Below, one piece after another: positions 2,043-58,423 of a DNA stretch of 64,000 nucleotides. The stretch's first letter is position 1. Each line of letters begins with the position of its first letter. The stretch is from Oceanisphaera sp. GTDB taxonomy: Bacteria; Pseudomonadota; Gammaproteobacteria; Enterobacterales; Aeromonadaceae. The position numbers and the translations under genes are program-made. Below the pieces are notes generated by a model. It searched no databases. It saw nothing but the letters and a program-made list of their open reading frames with translations, and was not told where the DNA came from. The stretch spans positions 14,575 through 78,574 of the forward strand of contig NZ_JBLWUK010000015.1 of NCBI RefSeq assembly GCF_048268965.1, given 5' to 3'.

Positions 2043-5000
2043 TTACACCTTTTCGACGTTGACTAAAAAGGACTTGAACTCGGGTGTTTGCGAGTTGCCA
2101 TCCCCCACCGAAGGGGTGAGCGTATTGGCCAAAAAGCCGGGTTGGGTTACACCCACAAAGCCCCAGTGAATGGGAATACCGATGTGGTGCACCCGCTTGC
2201 CGTCGATATCCAGACCACGGATCCGCTTGGTAACCACCGCCTTGGCTTTGATGTAACCACGGTTGGAAGACACCTTGACCATGTCTCCCTGGTCAATGCG
2301 CAGCTCTTTCGCCAGCTCGGCCCCAATTTCAACGAACTGTTCCGGCTGAATGATGCTGTTGAGCAGCACATGTTTGCTCCAGTAGTGGAAGTGCTCGGTC
2401 AGGCGATAGGTGGTGCCCACATAGGGGAACTGGTCCGCCTTGCCAAACTCGGCCTTGTCATCATCAAACAGACGGGCCGCCGGGTTGCTGGTCGCCTTGT
2501 CATTGTCTTTAAACAAGGGGTTATAACCCAGTGGCGTTTCGAAAGGCTCGTAGTGAGTGGGGAAGGGGCCTTCGGCCATGCCACCGCGGGCAAAAAAGCG
2601 CGCCACGCCCTCGGGGTTCATGATAAAGGGACCCATACCCTCACCCGGTGCCTCGTCTGCCTTATAGTCGGGCACATCGGCTCCGGTCCACTTGCTGCCA
2701 TTCCAGTGAATGAGCGAGCGGCTGGGGTCGAACGGATTCCCCTGACTATCACATGAGGCGCGGTTATACATGACGCGGCGGTTGGCCGGCCATGCCCATG
2801 CCCAGTTCAGCGTCTGACCTATGCCGGTGGGGTCACTGCTGTCCCGACGCGCCATCATGTTGCCTTCCTGGGTCCAGGAGCCGGAATAAATCCAGCAACC
2901 CCCCAGGGTCGAGCCGTCGTCCCGCATTTCGCCAAAGCCGGCCAACTGCTCGCCGGCCTTGCGAATGACGTTACCCCTGTTATCGGTCAAATCCCTCAGG
3001 GCCCGGCCATTCAGTTCTTTGGCCAATTCCTCGGCCGTGGGGGCGTAAGGGTTGGCGTAAGGCCAGGACAGCTGAGTGATGGGCTCGGCAAAGGTGCCGC
3101 CTTCCTGCTCGTACAGTTGGCGAATATGCTGATACAGGGTGGCCATGATCTCGATATCGGTCTTGGCTTCTCCCGGTGGCTCGGCGGCTTTCCAGTGCCA
3201 TTGCAACCAGCGTCCGGAGTTGACCAGGGTGCCGTCCTCTTCGGCAAAGCAGGAAGTCGGTAAGCGGAATACCTCGGTTTGAATGTCGGCTGAGTTGACG
3301 TCATTGGACTCGCCCGCGTTGCGCCAAAACTCGGAGGTTTCGGTCACCAGAGGGTCCATGATCACCATGAACTTAAGCTGGGACAGGGACTTGATCATCT
3401 TGGCCTTGTTGGGCGCCGCCGCCAAGGGGTTAAAGCCCTGACAGATATAGCCATTCATCTTGCCCTGGTTCATCAGCTCGTAAACCTGGAGCATGTCGTA
3501 GGGTTTATCCAGCTTGGGCAGGAAGTTGTACCCGAAGTTGTTTTCCTGACTGGCGTGCTCGCCCCACCAGGCCTTGCCCAGGCTGGCGTAGAACTTTTTG
3601 TAGTTCTGCCAGTAGCTCAGCTGGTTGTCTCGCAGCGGTTTGGGTGAACGTTTGGCAATGTACTGATCGAAGTCCTGCTCCGACTCATTGGGCAGGGTGA
3701 GGTAGCCCGGCAGCAGGTTGCTCATCAGGCCCAGATCCGTCAACCCCTGGATATTGGAGTGGCCGCGTAGCGCGTTCATGCCACCACCGGCAATCCCGAT
3801 ATTCCCCAGCAGCAGCTGCACCATGGCGCCGGTACGAATGATTTGCGAGCCAATGGAGTGCTGAGTCCAACCCAGAGCATAGAGTATGGTCCCGGCCCTG
3901 TCGGGCGTATGAGTGGAGGCCAGCAGTTCACACACCTGCAGGAATTTAGGAATGGGGGTGCCACAAACCCGCGCCACCATCTCGGGGGTATAACGGTCGT
4001 AATGTTTCTTCAACAGCTGATAAACACAGCGGGGGTGCTGCAGGCTGGGATCGGACGCGACCTTGCCCTGGGCATCCAGCTGGTAATCCCAGGAGGATTT
4101 ATCATAGCTGCGACTTTCTTCGTCATAACCGGAGAAAATACCATCGTCGAAGGCGTAGTCTTCATGGACGATGAATGACAGATCGGTGTAGTTTTTTACG
4201 TACTCATGCTGGACCTTGTTGTTATCAATCAGGTACTTGATAACCCCGCCCAGGAAGACGATATCGGTACCGGTACGAATGGGCGCATACAGATCGGCGA
4301 CCGAAGCGGAGCGGTTAAAGCGCGGATCCACCACGATCAACTTGGCGTTGTTATGTGCCTTGGCTTCCGTTACCCATTTAAAACCACAAGGATGCGCTTC
4401 GGCAGCGTTCCCTCCCATGATCAGCACGACGTCGGCATTTTTAATGTCGACCCAATGATTCGTCATAGCGCCACGGCCAAAAGTTGGGGCAAGACCTGCC
4501 ACCGTAGGACCGTGTCAAACGCGTGCTTGGTTATCGAATGCCAATATGCCCAGGGGGCGTATTACCTTGTGGGTGATATAGCCCACTTCGTTACTGCTGG
4601 CCGATGCTGCCAGCATGCCGGTAGTCAGCCAGCGGTTAACGGTTTTGCCATCGTCTGTCTGCTGAATGAAGTTCGCGTCGCGATCATCCTTCATCAATTT
4701 GGCGATGCGGCTGTAGGCCTGCTCCCAGGAGATGCGTTGCCAGGTATCCGAACCCGGAGCACGATATTCAGGATAGGTCAGGCGGTTGGGGCTGTGAATG
4801 AAGTCCACCAATCCGGCCCCTTTCGGGCACAGGGTACCGCGGTTGACCGGGTGATCATGGTCCCCTTCAATGTGCATGACGCTGGGTCTGGCATTTTTTG
4901 CGCCGTCCCCCATGCTGTAGACCAGAATGCCGCAGGCAACAGAGCAGTAAGGGCAGGTACTGCGGGTTTCTTTCGCGCGCGACAGCTTGTATTGCCGGGC

Positions 5001-5105
5001 GGCTGCCACGGCCGGGGTGGGTGTCATACCCAGCATCGCCATGCTCGAACTGGCTAGCGTTGCCCCCGTTATCTTGAAAAAATCGCGCCGACTCAGGTTA
5101 CTCAT
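2043..5105 (-). CDS. fdoG: Formate dehydrogenase-O/N catalytic alpha subunit, selenocysteine-containing (in-frame TGA at 4515-4517); ~1020 aa
   Basis: ORFs 4515..5111 and 2043..4502 are in the same frame, joined by ...[29 protein letters not shown]. Tat signal SRRDFFK and CPYCSVACG Fe-S motif. ATG at 5105 has GGAGA 6 nt upstream. fdnG is an equally possible name. Confidence 0.95.
4480..4517 (-). other. Selenocysteine UGA plus bacterial SECIS hairpin
   Basis: Minus strand reads TGA CAC GGT CCT ACG GTG GCAGGTCTTGCC CC. The GGCA/TGCC stem with a GGTCT apex starts ~11 nt after TGA, the position and form of enterobacterial fdh SECIS elements. Confidence 0.85.
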
Positions 5106-5310: not shown

Positions 5311-8300
5311 TTAGCCTTCACCCAACGACAACAGGGTGGCGTTGCCGCCAATGGCGGTGGTGTTGTTACTGATGGTTTTTTCGGTAATAAAGCGGGTGAG
5401 GTAGTGCGGCCCACCTGCTTTGGGGCCGGTGCCAGACAAGCCTTGTCCGCCAAAAGGCTGTACCCCCACCATGGCACCAATCTGGTCACGGTTGATGTAG
5501 ATGTTACCCGCATTGACGCGTTGCGCTATCTCATCGGCAAACGAGGCATTACGGCTGTGAATACCCAGCGTCAGGCCGTAGCCGGTGTTGTTGATATCGT
5601 CTATCACCTTGCCGATATCTTTCGCCTTGAAGCGCACCACATGCAAGATGGGACCAAACTGCTCTTTTTTCAGCTCGCCGATGGCGCTTATCTCCAGCGC
5701 CGTGGGGGGTATATAGAAGCCCTTGTCACAGCCGTTGCTTAATGATGTTTGAGCAATAACGGTGTTGCCGGCGGCTTGCATGGCAGCCAGGTGGGCCATG
5801 AGTCCGGCCTGAGCATCCTTATCGATAACCGGGCCCACGTCGGTAGACCACAAGGCGGGATCGGCCACACTAAGTTCATTCATGGCGCCCTTGAGTATCT
5901 CCAGCACCCGCTCGGCGATGTCTTCCTGCAAATACAAAACCCGTAGCGCCGAGCAACGCTGGCCTGCACTTTGAAAGGCAGCGCGCACCACGTCCCGCAC
6001 CACCTGCTCGGGCAGGGCGGTTGAGTCAACTATCATGGCATTTTGACCACCGGTTTCGGCAATCAGCGGAATAATGGCGCCCTGGCGTTGGGCAAGGGTT
6101 TGGTTGATGCGCATGGCGGTGTCGGTTGAGCCGGTAAAGCAGACGCCGGCAATGCGCGGATCGGCGGTCAGTGCCGCGCCAACCGTGGCGCCATCCCCCG
6201 GCAAGAGTTGCAATACTTCGGGCGGAATACCGGCCTGATGCGCCAGCGAAGTGGCAAGTTGCGCGATCAGGCTGGTCTGTTCGGCCGGTTTGGCCAGCAC
6301 CGTATTACCGGTAACCAGGGCCGCGCTCACTTGCCCCAGAAAGATGGCCAGCGGGAAGTTCCAGGGGCTGATACAGACGAAGGGCCCCCGGCCTTGCGCC
6401 AGCAGCTGGTTATGCTCTCCGGTGTAGCCGGGCAGGGTACGGGGCGTCATCAGGCTGCGGGCCTCGTTGGCATAATAACGGCAAAAATCAACGGCTTCCC
6501 GCACCTCGTCTATGCCATCTTGCAGTAACTTGCCGGCTTCGCGGGTACACAAAGAGATAAACTCGGCTTGATGGGCCTCCAGCAAGTCGGCCAGTTTTTC
6601 CACTGCCTGTGCCCGTGCCTCTACCGGCGTATTGCGCCAGGCGACAAAGGCGTTCTGGGCGATGCCCACAGCCTGCTCAACGGTGGCCTGGTCGGCGAAG
6701 TAGACCTTACCAACGGTTTGCTCATGATCCTGCGGGCTGAATACCGTGGTGGGGGTGCCGCTGGTTCTGGCTTTGCCCCCTACCAGTGCACTGGCCTGCC
6801 AGTGCTTGTCGTTCAGTTTATGCAGCGCACTAAAAAAGGGGGTGCGAATGCCTTCTATGTTGATGTTCAGGCCACGAGAGTTCAGGCGATCGGCAAAGAT
6901 GGCCAGCGGCAAGGGGATCCTGTCATTCGCCAGGCTGTCATATTCGGCCAGGGTCTCTCTGGGGTGAGTCACCAGGCTATCGATGGGGGTTTTCGGGTCC
7001 ACCAGCTTATGCACAAACGAGGTGTTGGCGCCGTTTTCCAGCAGGCGACGCACCAGATAGGGCAAGAGGTCTTTATGGGCACCGACCGGGGCATAAATAC
7101 GGCACGTTAGTCCCGGGTGTTCGGCCAGAACCGCGTTATACAGCTCTTCGCCCATGCCATGCAGACGTTGAAATTCGTAATCCCGATTGTTGGCCATGGC
7201 CATCACGGATACCACGGTATGAGCGTTGTGGGTGGCAAACTGCGGATAAATGGCGCCATCGGTGGCGTCACTCAGCAGGTAGCGGGCACAGGCCAGATAA
7301 GAGATATCGGTGCCGGCTTTGCGGGTAAACACCGGATAACCGTCGATGCCGCCTTGCTGGCAGAGCTTGATCTCGCTGTCCCAATACGCGCCTTTCACCA
7401 GTCGCAACGGAATTTCATCGCCTTGCTCTCGGGCGAGGGCCGTCAGCCAGCACAGTACCGGCAGAGCCCGTTTGGAGTAGGCCTGGATCACTATGCCCAG
7501 TCCTCCCCACCCCTGATTCACCGGATCCCGATACAGGGATTCGAACAAGTCGAGCGAGAGCTCGAGACGGTCCATCTCTTCGGCGTCTATGGTGACAAAC
7601 ACGTTTAACTTGCGTGCCAGCTCAAGCAGTTTGAGCACGGTGGCCTTCAGTTCGGTGAGTACGCGCTCGCGGTTGGCTTCTTCGTATCTGGGGTGGAGTG
7701 CCGACAGCTTGATCGAAATGGAAGGGCGAGGAACCGAGCTGTTCTCCAGTGATTCGCCCCCCACGGCGGCAATGGCGTTGGCGTAGTCCTGATAATATTT
7801 GTCGGCATCGGTGGCGGTCATGGCCGCTTCGCCCAGCATGTCGTAAGAGTGGGTATAACCTTGCTGGCGTGCCTTGCGGCTGGCTTTGAGTGCTTCCTTG
7901 ATGTCGCGACCCAGCACAAACTGTTTGCCCATGATCTTCATGGCGGCATACATGCCCGAGCGCACCATGGGCTCGCCCATGCGGTTGATCATCCGGTTGA
8001 GCACATTGGCGGGGTTGCCATCCAGCTTCTTGTCCATGCGAATCACCTTGCCGGTGAGCATCAGGCCCCAGGTGGAGGCGTTGACCAGCGTCGAGTCACT
8101 TTGGCGGAAATATTTGGCCCAGTCGGCACCGGATAACCGGTCTTTAATCAGCTCATCGGCGGTGTGGCTGTCGGGAATGCGCAGCAGGGCCTCGGCCAGA
8201 CACATTAAAATGATGCCTTCCTGGGTGTCCAGGCTGTATTGCTGCAAGAAGGCATCGATGCTATCACCGCCATCGCTTTCTTTACGCACCCGGGTCACCA

Positions 8301-8478
8301 GATTGTGAGCCTGTTCCTGAACCTGCGCCAGAGCCTGGCGGCTGGCAGGCACCTGCTCGAGCAAGGCGGCCAGATAGGTATTCTCGTCAACGATATAGTT
8401 CCGGGTGATGGCTTGACGCAGGGCCGGTAAATCGCTGGGGGCGTAACGGGGGGCAAAAGCATCGGCAACGGTAAACAT
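5311..8478 (-). CDS. putA: Bifunctional proline dehydrogenase / P5C dehydrogenase (no N-terminal DNA-binding domain)
   Basis: SIKLSALHPRY, RLVKGAYWDSE, FATHNAHT, YEFQRLHGMGE, RRLLENGANTSF; aldehyde dehydrogenase motifs ETGGQNA and GQRCSALR. Confidence 0.97.
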   Translation of the reverse strand: MFTVADAFAPRYAPSDLPALRQAITRNYIVDENTYLAALLEQVPASRQALAQVQEQAHNLVTRVRKESDGGDSIDAFLQQYSLDTQEGIILMCLAEALLRIPDSHTADELIKDRLSGADWAKYFRQSDSTLVNASTWGLMLTGKVIRMDKKLDGNPANVLNRMINRMGEPMVRSGMYAAMKIMGKQFVLGRDIKEALKASRKARQQGYTHSYDMLGEAAMTATDADKYYQDYANAIAAVGGESLENSSVPRPSISIKLSALHPRYEEANRERVLTELKATVLKLLELARKLNVFVTIDAEEMDRLELSLDLFESLYRDPVNQGWGGLGIVIQAYSKRALPVLCWLTALAREQGDEIPLRLVKGAYWDSEIKLCQQGGIDGYPVFTRKAGTDISYLACARYLLSDATDGAIYPQFATHNAHTVVSVMAMANNRDYEFQRLHGMGEELYNAVLAEHPGLTCRIYAPVGAHKDLLPYLVRRLLENGANTSFVHKLVDPKTPIDSLVTHPRETLAEYDSLANDRIPLPLAIFADRLNSRGLNINIEGIRTPFFSALHKLNDKHWQASALVGGKARTSGTPTTVFSPQDHEQTVGKVYFADQATVEQAVGIAQNAFVAWRNTPVEARAQAVEKLADLLEAHQAEFISLCTREAGKLLQDGIDEVREAVDFCRYYANEARSLMTPRTLPGYTGEHNQLLAQGRGPFVCISPWNFPLAIFLGQVSAALVTGNTVLAKPAEQTSLIAQLATSLAHQAGIPPEVLQLLPGDGATVGAALTADPRIAGVCFTGSTDTAMRINQTLAQRQGAIIPLIAETGGQNAMIVDSTALPEQVVRDVVRAAFQSAGQRCSALRVLYLQEDIAERVLEILKGAMNELSVADPALWSTDVGPVIDKDAQAGLMAHLAAMQAAGNTVIAQTSLSNGCDKGFYIPPTALEISAIGELKKEQFGPILHVVRFKAKDIGKVIDDINNTGYGLTLGIHSRNASFADEIAQRVNAGNIYINRDQIGAMVGVQPFGGQGLSGTGPKAGGPHYLTRFITEKTISNNTTAIGGNATLLSLGEG

Positions 8479-8928
8479 AATGGCACTCCTAACATGGCGG
8501 TGGCGAGCGAGCTAAACAAAATCAACGCTTGATAATGTATACGATTTTAAGGCGGTTAATAGCTTTTCATTGGCTGGTAACCAAAAAATGCGATCTTAAT
8601 AGCACATATATGCAGCATTACGGCTTTGGATGCCACCTTTCGTATACGATATGGGTGCGGCGAGCTGTTGTTAATATAGTAGAGTTCTGCTGGGGCGGCT
8701 GACTGGCTCACCCTGGCCGGGCGTGGCCTCGGCGCCGAGCGTGTGGTGAGGCTGTCTCTGAGTGGGAGAGGAGGCGACAGCTTTTTTGGGGGGGCGAGCG
8801 GAGTGCCGCTGGGTGTCGTAGAGCGGCTCTGTCCCCGACAACCGGCAAGGGCAAATGGTGGGCGCATTGTTTGCGTGGCGCGTACCGCCTATAATGCGCG
8901 CTCATTTTATCTGTGGTAAGCAAGCTCT

Positions 8929-9903
8929 GTGCACTATCAACGTCTTCCTAAAGGGCATTTTGCCTTATCTGTGGTTTATCTGATCACCGGCGCCTCCATT
9001 GCCGCCTCTATGGTCTTTTCTTTGCTGCTGTTTCTTTCTCTGGAGCAAGGCCTGCTGATGAAGCTGATGTTTGGCGGCCTGGCCCTGGTGTTTGAGGTGG
9101 GCAAGTTTTATATCTGGTACGAAATGGGCGAACGCGTCAGTCGACGCGACTCTATCGGGGCGGCCAAGGCATTGTGTTTTTACGCCGTGCTGGCCGGGTT
9201 ATCCATCGCCGGCAGTGTGGGCGGTATTAATGCTGCGACCAATACCCTGATGGAAAGCGACGCCGCCAAGGCGGCCGAGGTGCAAAGCTATACCGACAAG
9301 ATTGTTGGCCTGGAAAGAGAAATAGAAATCAACGAACAGGCGGCACAGGCTTACATCGATATGAAGCGCATCGCCAACGGCATGACGGCAATGCTGGCGC
9401 GCAATGCCGAGTTGCGCGCGCGCCAGGATGAGTTGCGCCGTGAACGGGATCAGGTGGCCATCACCAGCCAAAGTTCGCTGATGGGGCTGATGACCAGCCT
9501 GGCCGATGGCCTGGGCTGGCCGCTATCGCGGGTGCAGTTTGGAATAGTGGCGGCCTTGTCTATCTTGCTGGATTTCTTTGCGGCCTTCTTTATTGCCTTG
9601 CTGGGTGACGAAATTCGTTTTCGACGCAGCCAGAAGAAGCAAGCGCTGCCCGCTACGGCCGAGGCTGACAGCGAACAAGAAACAGCCGAGCCTTTGCTAC
9701 CGGTTCGTCCCGATTACTATCATGAGGTGGTGAACAAGCTACGGACAGGCGAGCTGCGTTGTGCCAAGGGCGCGGTATCGCGCATGCTGGAAAAGCCGCT
9801 GGAAGAAGTGGAAGATATTTTTCACTGGCTGCTGCAAGACGGTGTCGTGTATCGCAAACCCAACCGGCACTTTGCCCTGAGCCAGAAAACCGACCAGTCT
9901 TAA
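8929..9903 (+). CDS. Uncharacterised membrane protein: 3 TM + coiled coil + TM + putative C-terminal winged helix
   Basis: 324-aa ORF with GTG start and host-like codon use; hydrophobic segments and a heptad-rich middle. Function not recognised. Confidence 0.75.
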   Translation: MHYQRLPKGHFALSVVYLITGASIAASMVFSLLLFLSLEQGLLMKLMFGGLALVFEVGKFYIWYEMGERVSRRDSIGAAKALCFYAVLAGLSIAGSVGGINAATNTLMESDAAKAAEVQSYTDKIVGLEREIEINEQAAQAYIDMKRIANGMTAMLARNAELRARQDELRRERDQVAITSQSSLMGLMTSLADGLGWPLSRVQFGIVAALSILLDFFAAFFIALLGDEIRFRRSQKKQALPATAEADSEQETAEPLLPVRPDYYHEVVNKLRTGELRCAKGAVSRMLEKPLEEVEDIFHWLLQDGVVYRKPNRHFALSQKTDQS

Positions 9904-9917
9904 AGGCAGCTATAAGC

Positions 9918-10122
9918 CTGCCTCTTAGTCACAACTATATTAGTGTGGCTTGTCAGGCAGAGGTCACTACTCCCCCGACTCGCCGTAAAGACGGTCCCTG
10001 TAGGCTCAGCAGGGACGGCATTTGCCGAGCGTCGCAGGGATGCGGCTTAGCGCGTTGGCGGAGGCAACCCTACTGTCTCTGTGCACTATTTACGTACTGA
10101 CAAACTTGTGGCTAAGAGACAG
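9918..10122. mobile_element. 205-bp MITE-like element with IS50/Tn5-like 19-bp ends
   Basis: Left end CTGCCTCTTAGTCACAACT (9918-9936); right end read inward CTGTCTCTTAGCCACAAGT (10104-10122). Flanked by near-identical 9-mers GCTATAAGC (9909-9917) and GCCATAAGC (10123-10131). No transposase. Confidence 0.7.
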
Positions 10123-10149
10123 GCCATAAGCTATAAGCCTGAGTGTTGA

Positions 10150-10260
10150 TGGGAATGTGAGGAATGAGGGGGAAGCGATAACTTCCTTGTCAGCAGGTTC
10201 GGAGTTTGACACCTGACTCCTAACTCCTCACTCCTAACGACTTACTCCTCACTCTTCTTC
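10150..10260. repeat. Degenerate heptamer inverted-arm repeat (GTGAGGA.../CTCCTCA, CTCCTAA)
   Basis: G-rich arm atgtgaggaatgaggggg followed by C-rich arm actcctaactcctcactcctaac...actcctcactc at the 3' end of ygiM. Confidence 0.6.
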
Positions 10261-10266
10261 CGTGGC

Positions 10267-10884
10267 TTAGTTCATCCAGCGGCCGTTATTGCGCTTGCGG
10301 CGTAGTGGCACCATGGGCAGCAGTATGCCAAACAGGAGGCCGGCACCGGCCACGACGCCCCCGTTTACCAGCCAGTCCAGTCGCATCTGGTGCTCCCTGT
10401 CGTCCATCAGGCTGGTGAGGCGCTGGTTTTCACTTTCAAGCAGGGCATGCTGCTGGCGCAGCGCATGCAATTGCTCGTTCACCTGGGTCAGCTCCTGCTC
10501 TTGTTGCTCCAGGCGCGTACTTTTATCCCGTATATCCTGTTGATGACGCTCATCCGCCGATCCCAGCAGCTGTTTGGTGTGCTCCAGCTCGGCTTCCAGC
10601 AGAGGCAGTCTGGAACGAAAGCTCTCGTTGCCTTGTACAAACTGACCGTCTACCCAGCCGGTGCGTCCCTTGGCATCCCGAATCTGCACATATTTGGTCT
10701 GCGCATCACGGCTCAGCTCCACCACGGGCTCGCCCGCTTTAACGGTGCCAATAATACGAAATTTGTTGCTGGAGCCAGCGTGCAGATAGGCGTACACATC
10801 ATCAGAAATATAACGGTTGGCCGCTTCTGCCATGCCAAGCCAGGGCAGGTAGCATAACAGTGCTACAAGAAGTTTCGCTTTCAC
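10267..10884 (-). CDS. ygiM: SH3-domain membrane protein (YgiM/HtrG, TIGR04211 type)
   Basis: Signal peptide, RYISDDVYAYLHAGSSNKFRIIG SH3 region, coiled coil, C-terminal TM (GGVVAGAGLLFGILLP) and RRKR..RWM tail. Confidence 0.9.
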   Translation of the reverse strand: MKAKLLVALLCYLPWLGMAEAANRYISDDVYAYLHAGSSNKFRIIGTVKAGEPVVELSRDAQTKYVQIRDAKGRTGWVDGQFVQGNESFRSRLPLLEAELEHTKQLLGSADERHQQDIRDKSTRLEQQEQELTQVNEQLHALRQQHALLESENQRLTSLMDDREHQMRLDWLVNGGVVAGAGLLFGILLPMVPLRRKRNNGRWMN

Positions 10885-10948
10885 CTAGGGTTCCTTCAAT
10901 CTCAACGATGAAGTCATGGTAAAGGGTGCAGGGAAAGAGGACAAGAAG

Positions 10949-10970
10949 AAGGGGGCAAGATTGCCCCCTT
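10949..10970 (-). terminator. Hairpin after pitA
   Basis: AAGGGGGCAA-GA-TTGCCCCCTT perfect stem; pyrimidine run follows on the minus strand. Confidence 0.55.
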
Positions 10971-10980
10971 GAAGTGCTGT

Positions 10981-12246
10981 TTAGCTAAAGAGCCACTTGA
11001 TAATGTAGTAAAAGATAATGGACAGAATAGCGCCGGCGGGCAGCGTGACTATCCAGGAAACCACTATATTACGCAGTACGTTAAGGTTGAGTGCCGCAAT
11101 ACCGCGCGCCAGGCCGACCCCCATGACGGCACCCACCAGGGTCTGGGTGGTGGAGATGGGCAGTCCGGTGCCGGATGCGATCACCACTGTCGCAGCAGTA
11201 GCAAGCTGAGCGGCAAAGCCGCGGCTGGGCGTGAGATGGGTAATACCCGTGCCTACCGTGGCCATTACCTTGTGGCCCAAGGAGGCCAGGCCAATCACAA
11301 TACCAATGCCGCCCAGAGGCAGTATCCACCAGGCAATGCTGGATTTAGCGGCAATTTCACCCGAGCTTTGTACTATGCTCACCACGGCAGACAGCGGGCC
11401 AATGGCGTTGGCCACGTCGTTGGAGCCGTGAGCAAAGGCCATGGCACAGGCGGTGACCACCATCAGAATGCCGAACACTTTCTCTACGTTAGAGTAGTGC
11501 ATGTCCTTGTCATCCTGGGGATCGTATTGCTTGCGCTTGATGTAGATGCTACTCAGTACGGCGGCCAGCAAGGAGACGCTGATCGAGAGTATCCAGCCTT
11601 GCACCTCGCTCATTTCCAGACCCACGTGCTTGAGACCCTTCTTCAGGGTGACCAGGCACAGCACCATCACGGTAAAGAAAATGTAGGCAGGAACGTATTT
11701 CTTGGCGGCAGCTAACGGGTTGTCGGCGTTGAAAATCAGTCGTTGCACACTGATAAAGGTAAAGTAGGCCAACACGCCGGAGAGCGCCGGGGTGATAATC
11801 CAGGAGCCGACCACACCGGCCACCTTGTTCCAATGCACGGCATCCGAGCCCAGAGAAACCAGGGCAAAGCCAATAATGGCACCTATGATGGAGTGGGTAG
11901 TAGAAACCGGCCAACCGTAGTAAGAGGCCAGTAACAGCCAGGTACCTGCAGCCAGCAGAGAGGCAATCATGCCAAAGACCAATAGGTCGGGCGTATCGGA
12001 AAAGGCGGCGGAATCTATGATGCCATTCTTGATGGTAGAGGTAACTTCCCCCCCGGCCAGATAAGCGCCGGCAAATTCGAAGATCATGGCGATGATGATC
12101 GCCTGTTTGATGGTCAGCGAACGCGTTCCCACCGAGGTGCCCATGGCATTCGCCACATCGTTTGCACCTATGCCCCAGGCCATGAAAAAGCCGAAGAGCG
12201 CCGCCACCAGAATAAGCATGGTGCCGTAGTTAGCGATGATATCCAT
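10981..12246 (-). CDS. pitA: Inorganic phosphate transporter, PiT family
   Basis: Duplicated GANDVANAMG / GSNDVANAIG signature; PVSTTH and PISTTQ motifs. Confidence 0.93.
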   Translation of the reverse strand: MDIIANYGTMLILVAALFGFFMAWGIGANDVANAMGTSVGTRSLTIKQAIIIAMIFEFAGAYLAGGEVTSTIKNGIIDSAAFSDTPDLLVFGMIASLLAAGTWLLLASYYGWPVSTTHSIIGAIIGFALVSLGSDAVHWNKVAGVVGSWIITPALSGVLAYFTFISVQRLIFNADNPLAAAKKYVPAYIFFTVMVLCLVTLKKGLKHVGLEMSEVQGWILSISVSLLAAVLSSIYIKRKQYDPQDDKDMHYSNVEKVFGILMVVTACAMAFAHGSNDVANAIGPLSAVVSIVQSSGEIAAKSSIAWWILPLGGIGIVIGLASLGHKVMATVGTGITHLTPSRGFAAQLATAATVVIASGTGLPISTTQTLVGAVMGVGLARGIAALNLNVLRNIVVSWIVTLPAGAILSIIFYYIIKWLFS

Positions 12247-14644: not shown

Positions 14645-14722
14645 AGAGGTGAAGAGTAAGGGGGAAGAGTTCAGTATTCACCCTTCACCCTTCACCCTTC
14701 ACCCTTCACCCTTCACCTTCAC
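14645..14722. repeat. Heptamer tract (TTCACCC)x5 with G-rich counter-arm
   Basis: Five perfect TTCACCC units at 14677-14711, preceded by gaggtgaagagtaaggggga, between convergent genes. The stop codon of the minus gene (14719-14721) lies inside the tract. Confidence 0.85.
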
Positions 14723-19391: not shown

Positions 19392-19535
19392 AGGGGTAGA
19401 GGTGAGGCGTGAGGAGAACAAACCAGCCCCGAACCTGCCAGAAGGGTTGTTCACCTCACACCTCACACCTCACACCTCACACCTTACACCTTACACCTTA
19501 CACCTTACACCTTACACCTCACCCTTCACTCCTTA
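19388..19535. repeat. Heptamer microsatellite (CACCTCA)4(CACCTTA)5(CACCTCA) with G-rich counter-arm
   Basis: Ten consecutive CACCTYA units at 19452-19521; gtgaaggggtagaggtgaggcgtgagg arm starts at the glnE stop codon. Confidence 0.9.
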
Positions 19536-19541
19536 CGGATA

Positions 19542-20537: not shown

Positions 20538-20629
20538 GTGAAGAGTGAGGTGTCAGGCGTGAGTGGTTAAAACACAGAATCGACAGATCTGGATGTTATT
20601 CCTCACCCCTCACGCTTCACTCCTCACCC
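20538..20629. repeat. Degenerate heptamer inverted-arm repeat
   Basis: gtgaagagtgaggtgtcaggcgtgag ... cctcacccctcacgcttcactcctcaccc in the lpxL/hldE divergent gap. Confidence 0.7.
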
Positions 20630-29479: not shown

Positions 29480-29567
29480 ATTCCTAAGCAGTAGCGGATG
29501 TGGATGCTGTGGCCAGTTTGCTTAAAAGGCCAACGACTTCTTTGCCACGGAATACACGGAAGATTCA

Positions 29568-29640
29568 TCCTTCACTTCACCCTTCACTCTTCTCCTTCAC
29601 CCTTCTCCTTCACCCTTCTCCTTCACCCTTCTCCTTCACG
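29568..29640. repeat. 13-bp tandem repeat (TTCTCCTTCACCC) x~4, related to the heptamer family
   Basis: Units at 29590, 29603, 29616 and 29629 (last one partial), immediately after the sulP stop on the minus strand. Confidence 0.85.
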
Positions 29641-40376: not shown

Positions 40377-40439
40377 GTGAGGGGTGAGGGGGGAAGGCGT
40401 GAGGAAAAACAGACCCCTCACCCTTCATTCACCCCTCAT
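40377..40439. repeat. Heptamer inverted-arm repeat between convergent parC and mutT
   Basis: gtgaggggtgaggggggaaggcgtgagg-aaaaacagac-ccctcacccttcattcacccctca. Confidence 0.75.
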
Positions 40440-54892: not shown

Positions 54893-54982
54893 AAGGCATA
54901 AGTAGTGAGGCGTGAGGTGGAAAACACCGAGTCTTCAGGCGTGCTTTTACTCCTTACCCTTTACTCCTTTCCCCTCACTCAA
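54893..54982. repeat. Degenerate heptamer inverted-arm repeat between brnQ and fldB
   Basis: gtaaggcataagtagtgaggcgtgagg ... ttactccttaccctttactcctttcccctcact. Confidence 0.65.
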
Positions 54983-56469: not shown

Positions 56470-56558
56470 GGATGCAAGAGGGTGAAGAGTGAAGGGGAGT
56501 GGGTGCAGAGGTAGATAGCACAAGGCATCCTCTTTACGCCTCACCCTTCACCCCTCAC
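56466..56558. repeat. Degenerate heptamer inverted-arm repeat after xerD
   Basis: gtaaggatgcaagaggggtgaagagtgaaggggag ... tcctctttacgcctcacccttcacccctcacc. Confidence 0.65.
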
Positions 56559-56632
56559 CGACTTCAAGCGCCGTTGCAAATTCTGCGCACGGCGGTTAGT
56601 GTTGCCTTCCTGTTTAAATAACCAGTATCTGC

Positions 56633-58381: not shown

Positions 58382-58423
58382 AGGGCGGTGAGGCGTAAGG
58401 GTGAGAAGTGAGGAGTGAGGGAG
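58379..58423 (+). repeat. G-rich heptamer arm starting at the recJ stop
   Basis: tgaagggcggtgaggcgtaagggtgagaagtgaggagtgaggg; no C-rich partner arm seen. Confidence 0.6.

Follow-up and report, generated by a model that had tools for sequence, protein, structure and literature searches.

A degenerate miniature element with IS50/Tn5-type ends in an Oceanisphaera intergenic region

Introduction

What kind of sequence is the short stretch with inverted ends that lies between two convergent genes in the 64-kb window (the whole stretch of Oceanisphaera DNA analysed here, 64,000 nucleotides in length), and by what route may it have come to lie there? The original prediction, made from the letters of the DNA, interpreted it as a non-autonomous miniature element (MITE) of the IS50 subgroup flanked by a 9-bp target duplication. 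MITEs are a well-known class of sequences, and an element of this sort is not a new kind of thing. Within the IS4 family, MIC231 is a MITE whose partner is IS231. Other bacterial MITEs with an IS partner are RUP, which is paired with IS630-Spn1, and the Correia/NEMIS repeats (PMC2229807, PMC10969869). The present analysis supports the reading of the element as a non-autonomous MITE of an IS4-family, IS50/Tn5-type insertion sequence in Oceanisphaera, with a probability of about 0.92. The evidence comes from other copies of the element, from 9-bp duplications in its relatives and from a matching transposase. The competing explanations are weighed below, each together with the evidence that bears on it.

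Results

Anatomy of the element

The features of the element and of its surroundings are collected in Table 1. On re-reading, the coordinates and the letters that the original prediction had given for the ends and the flanking 9-mers proved exact. The two ends are alike at 16/19 positions, the mismatches falling at positions 4, 12 and 18, and the 9-mers that flank them are identical at 8/9. A recount against the Tn5 outside end CTGACTCTTATACACAAGT returned the same scores as before, 15/19 and 16/19; the strings used here for this end and for the mosaic end CTGTCTCTTATACACATCT are those of PMC3347997 and PMC2566895. Compared with the family consensus CTGTCTCTTAGTCACAAGT, the left end differs at positions 4 and 18 and the right end carries T12C. 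The C at position 18 of the left end is common to a subfamily, and T4C is private to the window copy. A degenerate end motif occurs twice in the 64-kb window, exclusively at these two ends and in inverted orientation; shuffled windows held 0.04 matches, and none of 100 shuffles contained two. The element is crossed by a single open reading frame, which starts with TTG, encodes 113 aa and overlaps the terminal part of the adjacent gene.

Table 1. Positions of the element, its parts and its neighbours in the window
Feature	Positions	Strand	Remarks
Upstream flanking ORF, 324 aa	8929..9903	+	no Pfam family; membrane-like N-terminus
Left copy of putative 9-bp target duplication, GCTATAAGC	9909..9917	.	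fits family target consensus A-GCYNWNRGC
Whole non-autonomous MITE	9918..10122	.	205 bp including ends; without credible coding capacity
Left 19-bp terminal inverted repeat, CTGCCTCTTAGTCACAACT	9918..9936	+	
Left interior	9937..10009	+	8-bp deletion directly inside the repeat relative to L075
Remnant of YPAL/RU-2-like module, CAGGCAG ... CGCCGTAAAGACGGTCCCTGTAGGCTCAG	9955-10009		within left interior
Internal-deletion junction	10009..10010	.	between two CAG triplets
Right interior module	10010..10103	+	best conserved part across the MITE family
Right 19-bp terminal inverted repeat, minus-strand reading CTGTCTCTTAGCCACAAGT	10104..10122	-	
Right copy of putative 9-bp target duplication, GCCATAAGC	10123..10131	.	
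Extra heptamer TATAAGC	10132..10138	.	continues the GCYATAA 7-bp repeat of the target
Inverted Shine-Dalgarno-like heptamer arrays (GTGAGGA... / ...CCTCACT)	10157..10257	.	between element and SH3 gene; outside the MITE
Convergent flanking gene, TIGR04211-type SH3-domain protein	10267..10884	-	

The element is set in a 7-bp repeat that reads GCTATAA-GC[element]GCCATAA-GCTATAA-GCC, and a perfect 13-mer, AGCTATAAGCCTG, which spans flank and tip, is present at 9908-9920 and 10129-10141. Because of the 8/9 match and of this heptamer context, the duplication of the window copy is ambiguous on its own and is settled only by other members of the family. The best match to the window copy is a locus of O. 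sediminis (L075), with 94.7% identity over 113 bp and 82.5% over a further 80 bp. In a multiple alignment the window copy is 154 bp shorter than this relative, a figure that includes the 8-bp deletion on the left and is mostly due to one internal deletion, whose junction reads GGCTCAG/CAGGGACGG. The window copy is thus a decayed deletion derivative and not a pristine element.

The locus in related genomes

The 324-aa ORF terminates 14 bp upstream of the element, and orthologues of this ORF, of 305-320 aa, occupy the same position in relatives. The homologues of the convergent SH3-domain protein assign the window to an Oceanisphaera species; the closest is 92% identical, and those of named species are 77-79% identical. 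A look-up of the exact products of the two flanking window proteins returned none on record. The gap between the two convergent genes measures 363 bp in the window and 103-122 bp in five relatives that lack the element, namely O. litoralis (L005) and the metagenomic L006/L007 and L094 (87%) and L095 (86%). In these element-free relatives the gap holds a classical bidirectional terminator, AAAAAGCCATNAG...CTNATGGCTTTTT, whose place is occupied in the window by the heptamer arrays that lie between the element and the SH3 gene. None of the five yielded an exact empty site, since the window lineage has remodelled the gap, the heptamer arrays replacing the terminator, and this prevents a base-by-base alignment. 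The search of metagenome contigs gave 0 empty-site matches, and a control pattern that fits a filled as well as an empty site likewise gave 0; the species is therefore absent from that collection and the negative is uninformative.

The element is found at the same site in near-identical relatives (L004 and contigs of run X3). In the lineage with 92% identity (L001-L003), a different family member lies elsewhere in the gap, after GCTTAAAGC; the contigs of this lineage break at the element, as repeats do. A scan of positions 9700-10400 detected no promoter-like site, and no terminator-like site in the element or the intergenic gap.

Copies in other genomes and in the host strain

The family was explored by an end-motif scan with CTGYCTCTTAGYCACAAST over one genome per species, covering 185,579 species. 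The scan returned 78 loci, against some 35 chance matches by our own estimate from the degeneracy of the pattern and the size of the collection. The loci are not randomly distributed, and about 50 of the 78 belong to Oceanisphaera, Oceanimonas marisflavi and Zobellella maritima. Within Oceanisphaera, loci are present in marina, sediminis, litoralis, arctica, psychrotolerans, pacifica, ostreae, W20_SRM_FM3, Ca. merdipullorum and MAGs, and the remaining loci cluster in Legionella, Buttiauxella/Dryocola, Endozoicomonas, Psychromonas, Pseudoalteromonas and one deltaproteobacterial MAG. Other Oceanisphaera genomes carry 4-11 loci apiece with the exact 19-mer.

When ends were paired within 2.5 kb, about 40 short elements were obtained, 164-582 bp in length and mostly 344-368 bp, which combine the same ends with a homologous interior and come from 12 or more genomes of Oceanisphaera, Oceanimonas and Zobellella. 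Thirteen of the short elements are bounded by perfect 9-bp duplications and four others by duplications matching at 8/9; the perfect cases at non-repetitive sites include GCTCAGAGC, GCTTGAAAC and CATTAATAC. The window element is homologous to the short family elements along its whole length, and its positions 93/96-205 match more than 30 loci at 74-99%. Apart from L075, over 30 further loci match at 74-88%. A plasmid collection queried with a full-length family member yielded one Yersinia YPAL copy only and no annotated element.

The element is also repeated in the host strain. A public sequencing run (X1) contains 94% of the region's sampled words and matches it nearly base for base. In this run the flanks have a depth of about 428 and the element bins reach 5,500-11,100, which corresponds to some 13-26 copy-equivalents at an identity of at least 85%. 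The contigs of the strain break inside the element and several branch there. Loose contig ends at 10010 run into undeleted interior (…CCAACCGTCAAATGC and CGCGCCATCCCTGG…), and full-length copies therefore coexist in the same genome.

A YPAL/RU-2-like module in the interior

The fold-back that had been described for the left end is present in the DNA fold, where it uses the orphaned arm CAGGCAG of a conserved stem; the right end also folds back, with CTGTCTCT...AGAGACAG. Compared with shuffled sequences, a full-length copy folds with z = -8.1, whereas the window copy is unremarkable (z = -1.9). The element together with its flanks (9895-10270) is predicted to form a long hairpin, with z = -4.2. 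Compensatory differences were detected in 21/88 predicted pairs, mostly between two subfamilies.

At the gathering threshold, Rfam models run over the whole window identified only a SECIS element elsewhere and none in the element. A full-length relative scored 28.7 bits against Ysr224 (RF02770), the gathering score of which is 70 (E 1e-4), and the window matched neither the Ysr224 model nor the 168-bp YPAL consensus. By our reading, the Ysr224 consensus appears to be part of the reverse complement of YPAL/RU-2, the 168-bp Yersinia repeat whose sequence is printed in PMC2759123. In a BLAST search against the collected loci, YPAL nucleotides 67-117 matched more than 30 MITE copies at 80-96%, with one copy (L043) reaching 96% over 51 bp. 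This shared 51-bp block reads ACGCCGTAAA..CC.TG.AGGCTC.AGCCGCGCCATCC.TGGCGCGGA. In global alignments, full-length MITEs are roughly colinear with the whole of the 168-bp YPAL over about 150 bp, and the YPAL part abuts the left terminal repeat. Of this part the window copy retains only some 55 bp, and several of the conserved stems lack one arm in it.

YPAL itself has no terminal inverted repeats, is flanked by duplications of 3-26 bp and inserts by dyad symmetries near stop codons (PMC2229807). Hidden Tn5-type ends were also looked for on Yersinia YPAL, and none was present in the one copy read (L088), which is devoid of CTGTCTCTTAG ends; this copy sits directly in a terminator-like hairpin. 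The MITE family is therefore a chimera, in which Tn5-type ends are joined to a YPAL-like module and to a second one of about 110-290 bp.

These similarities raise the question of whether the element is in the main a YPAL/RU-2-like (Ysr224) module, either a structured 3'-UTR or a small RNA, kept for a hairpin that would stabilise or terminate the flanking transcripts, while the ends would be incidental. The match and rough colinearity with YPAL/RU-2, the marked fold of the full-length form, the compensatory differences and the position of the element directly after a stop codon, where the canonical terminator is gone, all fit with this idea. However, the window copy is without most of the shared block and without one arm of the conserved stems, its fold is ordinary, and the Rfam score, which stays far below the threshold, was obtained with a full-length relative only. 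The compensatory pairs separate only two or three subfamilies and hence amount to few independent events, which hairpin-templated repair could also yield. Moreover, a role of this kind is compatible with a MITE identity and does not exclude it. As an account that would take the place of transposition it is improbable. The element may nevertheless influence the 3' ends of the transcripts on either side, because a long hairpin is predicted and no canonical terminator is left in the gap.

An autonomous partner with a Tn5-like transposase

The partner that a non-autonomous element calls for was found as a complete 1567-bp IS, which makes up a 1569-bp contig of Oceanimonas marisflavi (L015). Its ends are CTGTCTCTTGGTCACAAGT and CTGTCTCTTAGTCACAAGT, and it encodes a transposase of 470 aa, the stop codon of which lies inside the right end; the partner-IS transposases range from 465 to 470 aa. 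The protein contains the Pfam domains Tnp_DNA_bind (PF14706) and DDE_Tnp_1 (PF01609) and matches the NCBIfam model 'IS4 family transposase' (NF033590). It aligns with the Tn5 transposase structures 1MUH/4DM0 over residues 8-461 (E 5e-78), with conservation of the D/D/E and YREK-region motifs (DTT, CDREADI, RWRIEEFH..WK). An Oceanisphaera MAG (L062) carries a partial IS, cut by the end of the contig, of which the left end and the first 258 aa of the transposase remain; this transposase is 94% identical to that of L015.

Marine gammaproteobacteria commonly carry homologues of the transposase (50-73% identity), for the most part on contigs of some 1.5 kb, and those listed at 54-60% include proteins of Vibrio breoganii, Colwellia and Thalassomonas. 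The IS type with 70% identity (P0056; metagenomic L090-L093) likewise measures 1567 bp, and P0056/P0057 represent an Oceanisphaera transposase type, 68-70% identical. The ends of the P0056-type IS are asymmetric, with CTGTCTCTTAGTCACATCT on the left and ...CACAAGT on the right, and one metagenomic copy (L093) is flanked by a perfect 9-bp duplication, GCTTCAAGC. In this way the search for a transposase with matching ends, which the original prediction had put forward as a check, led to a 1567-bp IS that shares the 19-bp ends, makes a 9-bp duplication and encodes a homologue of the Tn5 transposase. In the window itself, a similarity search revealed no transposase, and the strain's own contigs hold nothing at 80% nucleotide identity or above to the O. 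marisflavi IS.

One MITE (L072) and the 1567-bp IS share their first 27 bp exactly and also their last 19 bp; the right 19-21 bp of MITE and IS are identical or near-identical. The possibility that the MITE interior is a deleted form of the IS was rejected, because the two resemble each other over 19-35 bp at the ends and no further. Simple deletion of the IS therefore does not account for the MITEs, whose interior is unrelated to that of the IS.

This comparison also bears on the reading of the window element as the in-situ remnant of a full-length IS50-like IS that lost its transposase gene here and never moved as a small unit. Such an origin would explain why the ends match those of the 1567-bp IS, and the window copy does have deletions. 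The interior argues against it: the roughly 165 bp between the ends are not IS sequence, and they are common, at 74-99%, to dozens of short elements at unrelated loci in other species, many of which have perfect 9-bp duplications of their own. It follows that the short form is what spread. The remnant reading is thereby largely refuted and is very improbable.

Target choice and heptamer arrays

Target preference was derived from the 15 bp outside 101 unique ends. The resulting logo shows A at position -10 followed by G (.79), C (.74), Y, N, W, N, R, G (.75) and C (.75), with a further GC/T signal 7 bp upstream. The family thus inserts at A-GCYNWNRGC, often inside 7-bp arrays. This preference is a stricter natural version of the Tn5 rule A-GNTYWRANC-T, which was reportedly set out by Goryshin et al. 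in 1998; the string GNTYWRANC is present in the literature as the Tn5 target. Full-length IS copies have the same target habit, with one located after (GCTGTAA)3 (L062) and another before GCTGACG-GCTTATA-GCTTACA (L017), and many of the MITEs are found within or next to (GCNNNNN)n arrays, such as (GCCGTAA)6 in L032. From the logo, the habit of the IS and the MITEs in arrays, it can be concluded that the ATAAGCY repeat of the window is a preferred kind of target and no alternative to transposition. The caveat in the original prediction, that the 9-mers may just belong to such a local repeat, is itself correct for this copy.

A chance inverted repeat in a heptamer-rich intergenic region is hardly credible at all and is refuted, for even though a GCYATAA heptamer repeat includes the flanking 9-mers and other heptamer arrays occur in the same region, the end motif is expected only 0.04 times in the window, and many other genomes contain these ends together with this interior, of which the host itself has about 13-26 copies.

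The arrays also have a distribution of their own. The notion that strict (GCYNNNR)n arrays are confined to the sides of elements was rejected, as 4/15 arrays in 629 kb abut an end and several lie kilobases off.

Discussion

Proposed movement and decay of the window copy

By analogy with Tn5, a Tn5-like transposase acting in trans would bind both 19-bp ends of the MITE, excise it through hairpin intermediates and integrate it with a 9-bp stagger. Integration would take place at preferred A-GCYNWNRGC sites, which are common in 7-bp (GCNNNNN)n arrays just 3' of genes. The window copy would have landed in this manner 14 bp past the stop of the 324-aa ORF, between the convergent genes. After insertion it would have undergone the 8-bp deletion, one substitution per tip relative to the subfamily and one in the duplication; the internal deletion may have arisen either at this locus or before insertion. 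The mutated tips, the imperfect duplication, the deletions and the fixation of the element in close relatives suggest that it is now probably immobile, and the window copy is probably a fixed, old relic that is poorly mobile or immobile.

Relation to known systems

Like IS50/Tn5, the family has 19-bp ends that begin CTG.CTCTTA..CACA, and the family end CTGTCTCTTAGTCACATCT scores 17/19 against the Tn5 mosaic end. A 9-bp duplication at a palindromic target, with G1, C9, Y/T at 3 and R/A at 7, is also shared with IS50/Tn5, as is a transposase that, in the partner IS, aligns end to end with that of Tn5. Unlike IS50, the window element is only 205 bp long and without a transposase, its interior is unrelated both to IS50 and to the partner IS, and mismatches with the IS50 ends fall at positions 4, 11, 12 and 18. 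The family target also departs from that of Tn5, in that C2/G8 is strongly preferred and 7-bp arrays are favoured.

A second relationship is that with YPAL/RU-2 (De Gregorio et al. 2006, Delihas 2007). Members of the MITE family also form G+C-rich long hairpins that follow closely on stop codons and are inserted at or beside dyad symmetries (for YPAL, PMC2229807). Nevertheless, in contrast to YPAL, they possess Tn5-type 19-bp ends, strict 9-bp duplications and the second module of about 110-290 bp. Finally, the family resembles RUP, Correia/NEMIS and MIC231 in being short and non-coding, with terminal repeats shared with an IS and target duplications, as well as in its many intergenic copies, hairpin-forming transcripts and presumed mobilisation in trans. 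It differs from those MITEs in that its parent belongs to another IS subgroup, that the duplication is 9 bp instead of TA or other lengths, and that the interior is chimeric. In the searchable literature, which does not take in ISfinder, no MITE assigned to the IS50/Tn5 subgroup was found.

A tentative link to Yersinia repeats

We know of no means of movement or mobilising enzyme that has been put forward for YPAL/RU-2 since 2006. It is tempting to speculate that the Oceanisphaera family is the missing link for the Yersinia YPAL/RU-2 (Ysr224) repeats. Carried by Tn5-type MITEs as their core or cargo, the YPAL-type modules would have spread between orders of gammaproteobacteria; alternatively, they would have descended from such MITEs by loss of the ends. 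A bolder addition to this proposal is that the (GCNNNNN)n arrays might be footprints of excision. A 9-bp duplication of the form GCnnnnnGC, rejoined via a 2-bp GC microhomology, would leave 7 additional bp per cycle of insertion and excision, and each cycle would recreate the preferred target. Taken as a whole, this scheme is rather unlikely to be correct, and it is offered as a tentative suggestion.

Implications for the family and for annotation

The importance of the locus resides in the family to which it leads. The non-autonomous MITE reading of the window element is upheld by the other copies, the matching transposase and the 9-bp duplications of its relatives, and it connects this copy with a MITE family that is tied unusually clearly to a Tn5/IS50-type transposase, with 19-27-bp ends, a 9-bp duplication and a target preference in common. 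As the transposase of Tn5 is the best-understood bacterial transposase, mobilisation of the family is directly testable. Further value lies in its sharp target rule, A-GCYNWNRGC, often within 7-bp arrays right after genes, and in the links of the family core to the Yersinia YPAL/RU-2/Ysr224 repeats. With regard to annotation, the appropriate label here is that of a degenerate MITE copy within a 3' intergenic region, and neither that of a gene nor that of a regulator.

Insertions and Hairpin Stems of the MITE Family

The intergenic gap that holds the MITE of the window, downstream of the SH3 gene, has been targeted more than once. The 92%-identical lineage (loci L001, at 4873-5061, L002 and L003) carries another member of this family at another site in the gap, the result of a separate insertion into the same 3' region. 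At the level of the family, the right module (columns 303-413 of the alignment of family members, A3) distinguishes two MITE subfamilies: several of its hairpin stems differ between them at both paired positions in a compensatory manner, for example CAAATGCC/GGCATTTG in one subfamily vs CACATGAC/GTCATGTG in the other. Given these paired differences, the right-module stems seem to be preserved, or repaired one against the other.

Heptamer Arrays

The window carries a series of intergenic 7-bp tandem arrays of up to ~12 units, made of TTCACCC, CACCTCA, CCTCACC, GTGAGGA and similar units. Read in the sense of the gene, the arrays adjoining a stop codon become (UGAGGUG)n or (GAGGAGU)n, which are Shine-Dalgarno-like; to our knowledge, no function has been described for these arrays. 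The array that adjoins the SH3 gene is shorter by 14 bp, or two heptamers, in close relatives (locus L004 and sequencing runs X2 and X4; window region 10212-10229), and its length is therefore polymorphic. Elsewhere in the window, a match to the Rfam SECIS_3 model (4462-4520, minus strand; 80 bits vs a gathering score of 63) points to a selenoprotein gene, located upstream of the putA-like gene (5311-8478).

Heptamer arrays of the form (GCYNNNR)n are present in Oceanisphaera and Oceanimonas, often, although not always, with MITE or IS ends alongside. If the GC ends of a GCnnnnnGC 9-bp duplication were rejoined, exactly 7 bp would be gained, a consideration that leads to the idea that some of these arrays might be excision footprints.

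Heptamer arrays in the window and at loci of other genomes
Array	Location	Positions	Relation to stop codon
Intergenic 7-bp tandem	Window	10157-10257	Part 10212-10254 within a few to ~12 bp
Intergenic 7-bp tandem	Window	14677-14722	
Intergenic 7-bp tandem	Window	19452-19536	Within a few to ~12 bp
Intergenic 7-bp tandem	Window	20601-20629	
Intergenic 7-bp tandem	Window	29564-29639	Within a few to ~12 bp
Intergenic 7-bp tandem	Window	40377-40439	Part 40377-40404 within a few to ~12 bp
Intergenic 7-bp tandem	Window	54946-54980	Within a few to ~12 bp
Intergenic 7-bp tandem	Window	56539-56559	
Intergenic 7-bp tandem	Window	58388-58420	Within a few to ~12 bp
(GCYNNNR)n	L032	989-1067	
(GCYNNNR)n	L062	1025-1047	
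(GCYNNNR)n	L017	128-150	
(GCYNNNR)n	L030	7048-7077	
(GCYNNNR)n	L068	4385-4428	

Element Ends in Other Contexts and Taxa

Two element ends lie head to head in L092, a locus of the metagenomic IS type (21-67, separated by the 9 bp GCTAGGTGC), and in a contig of run X4 placed on L015, the complete partner IS (separated by the 7 bp GCTTTAA). These are neighbouring insertions with a common target or, possibly, an end-to-end junction.

The 19-bp end of the family also occurs at eight Legionella loci (L010, L012, L016, L056, L059, L060, L063 and L086), followed by ~45 bp of conserved sequence (TTAAAATTCTTGGGGAAAAGTCAGATTTGAGTGC) beyond which the sequence is unrelated. At these loci the search for a partner end within 2.5 kb, allowing up to 5 mismatches, was negative, and tblastn (E 1e-5) detected no transposase there; they may represent a distinct family of solo ends or very short MITEs. 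In Buttiauxella and Dryocola (L049, L058, L074, L071), Endozoicomonas (L047, L048, L084) and a deltaproteobacterial MAG (L022, L036, L046), short elements combine the identical 19-bp end with unrelated interiors. The same Tn5-type end seems to have given rise to different MITEs in the various taxa.
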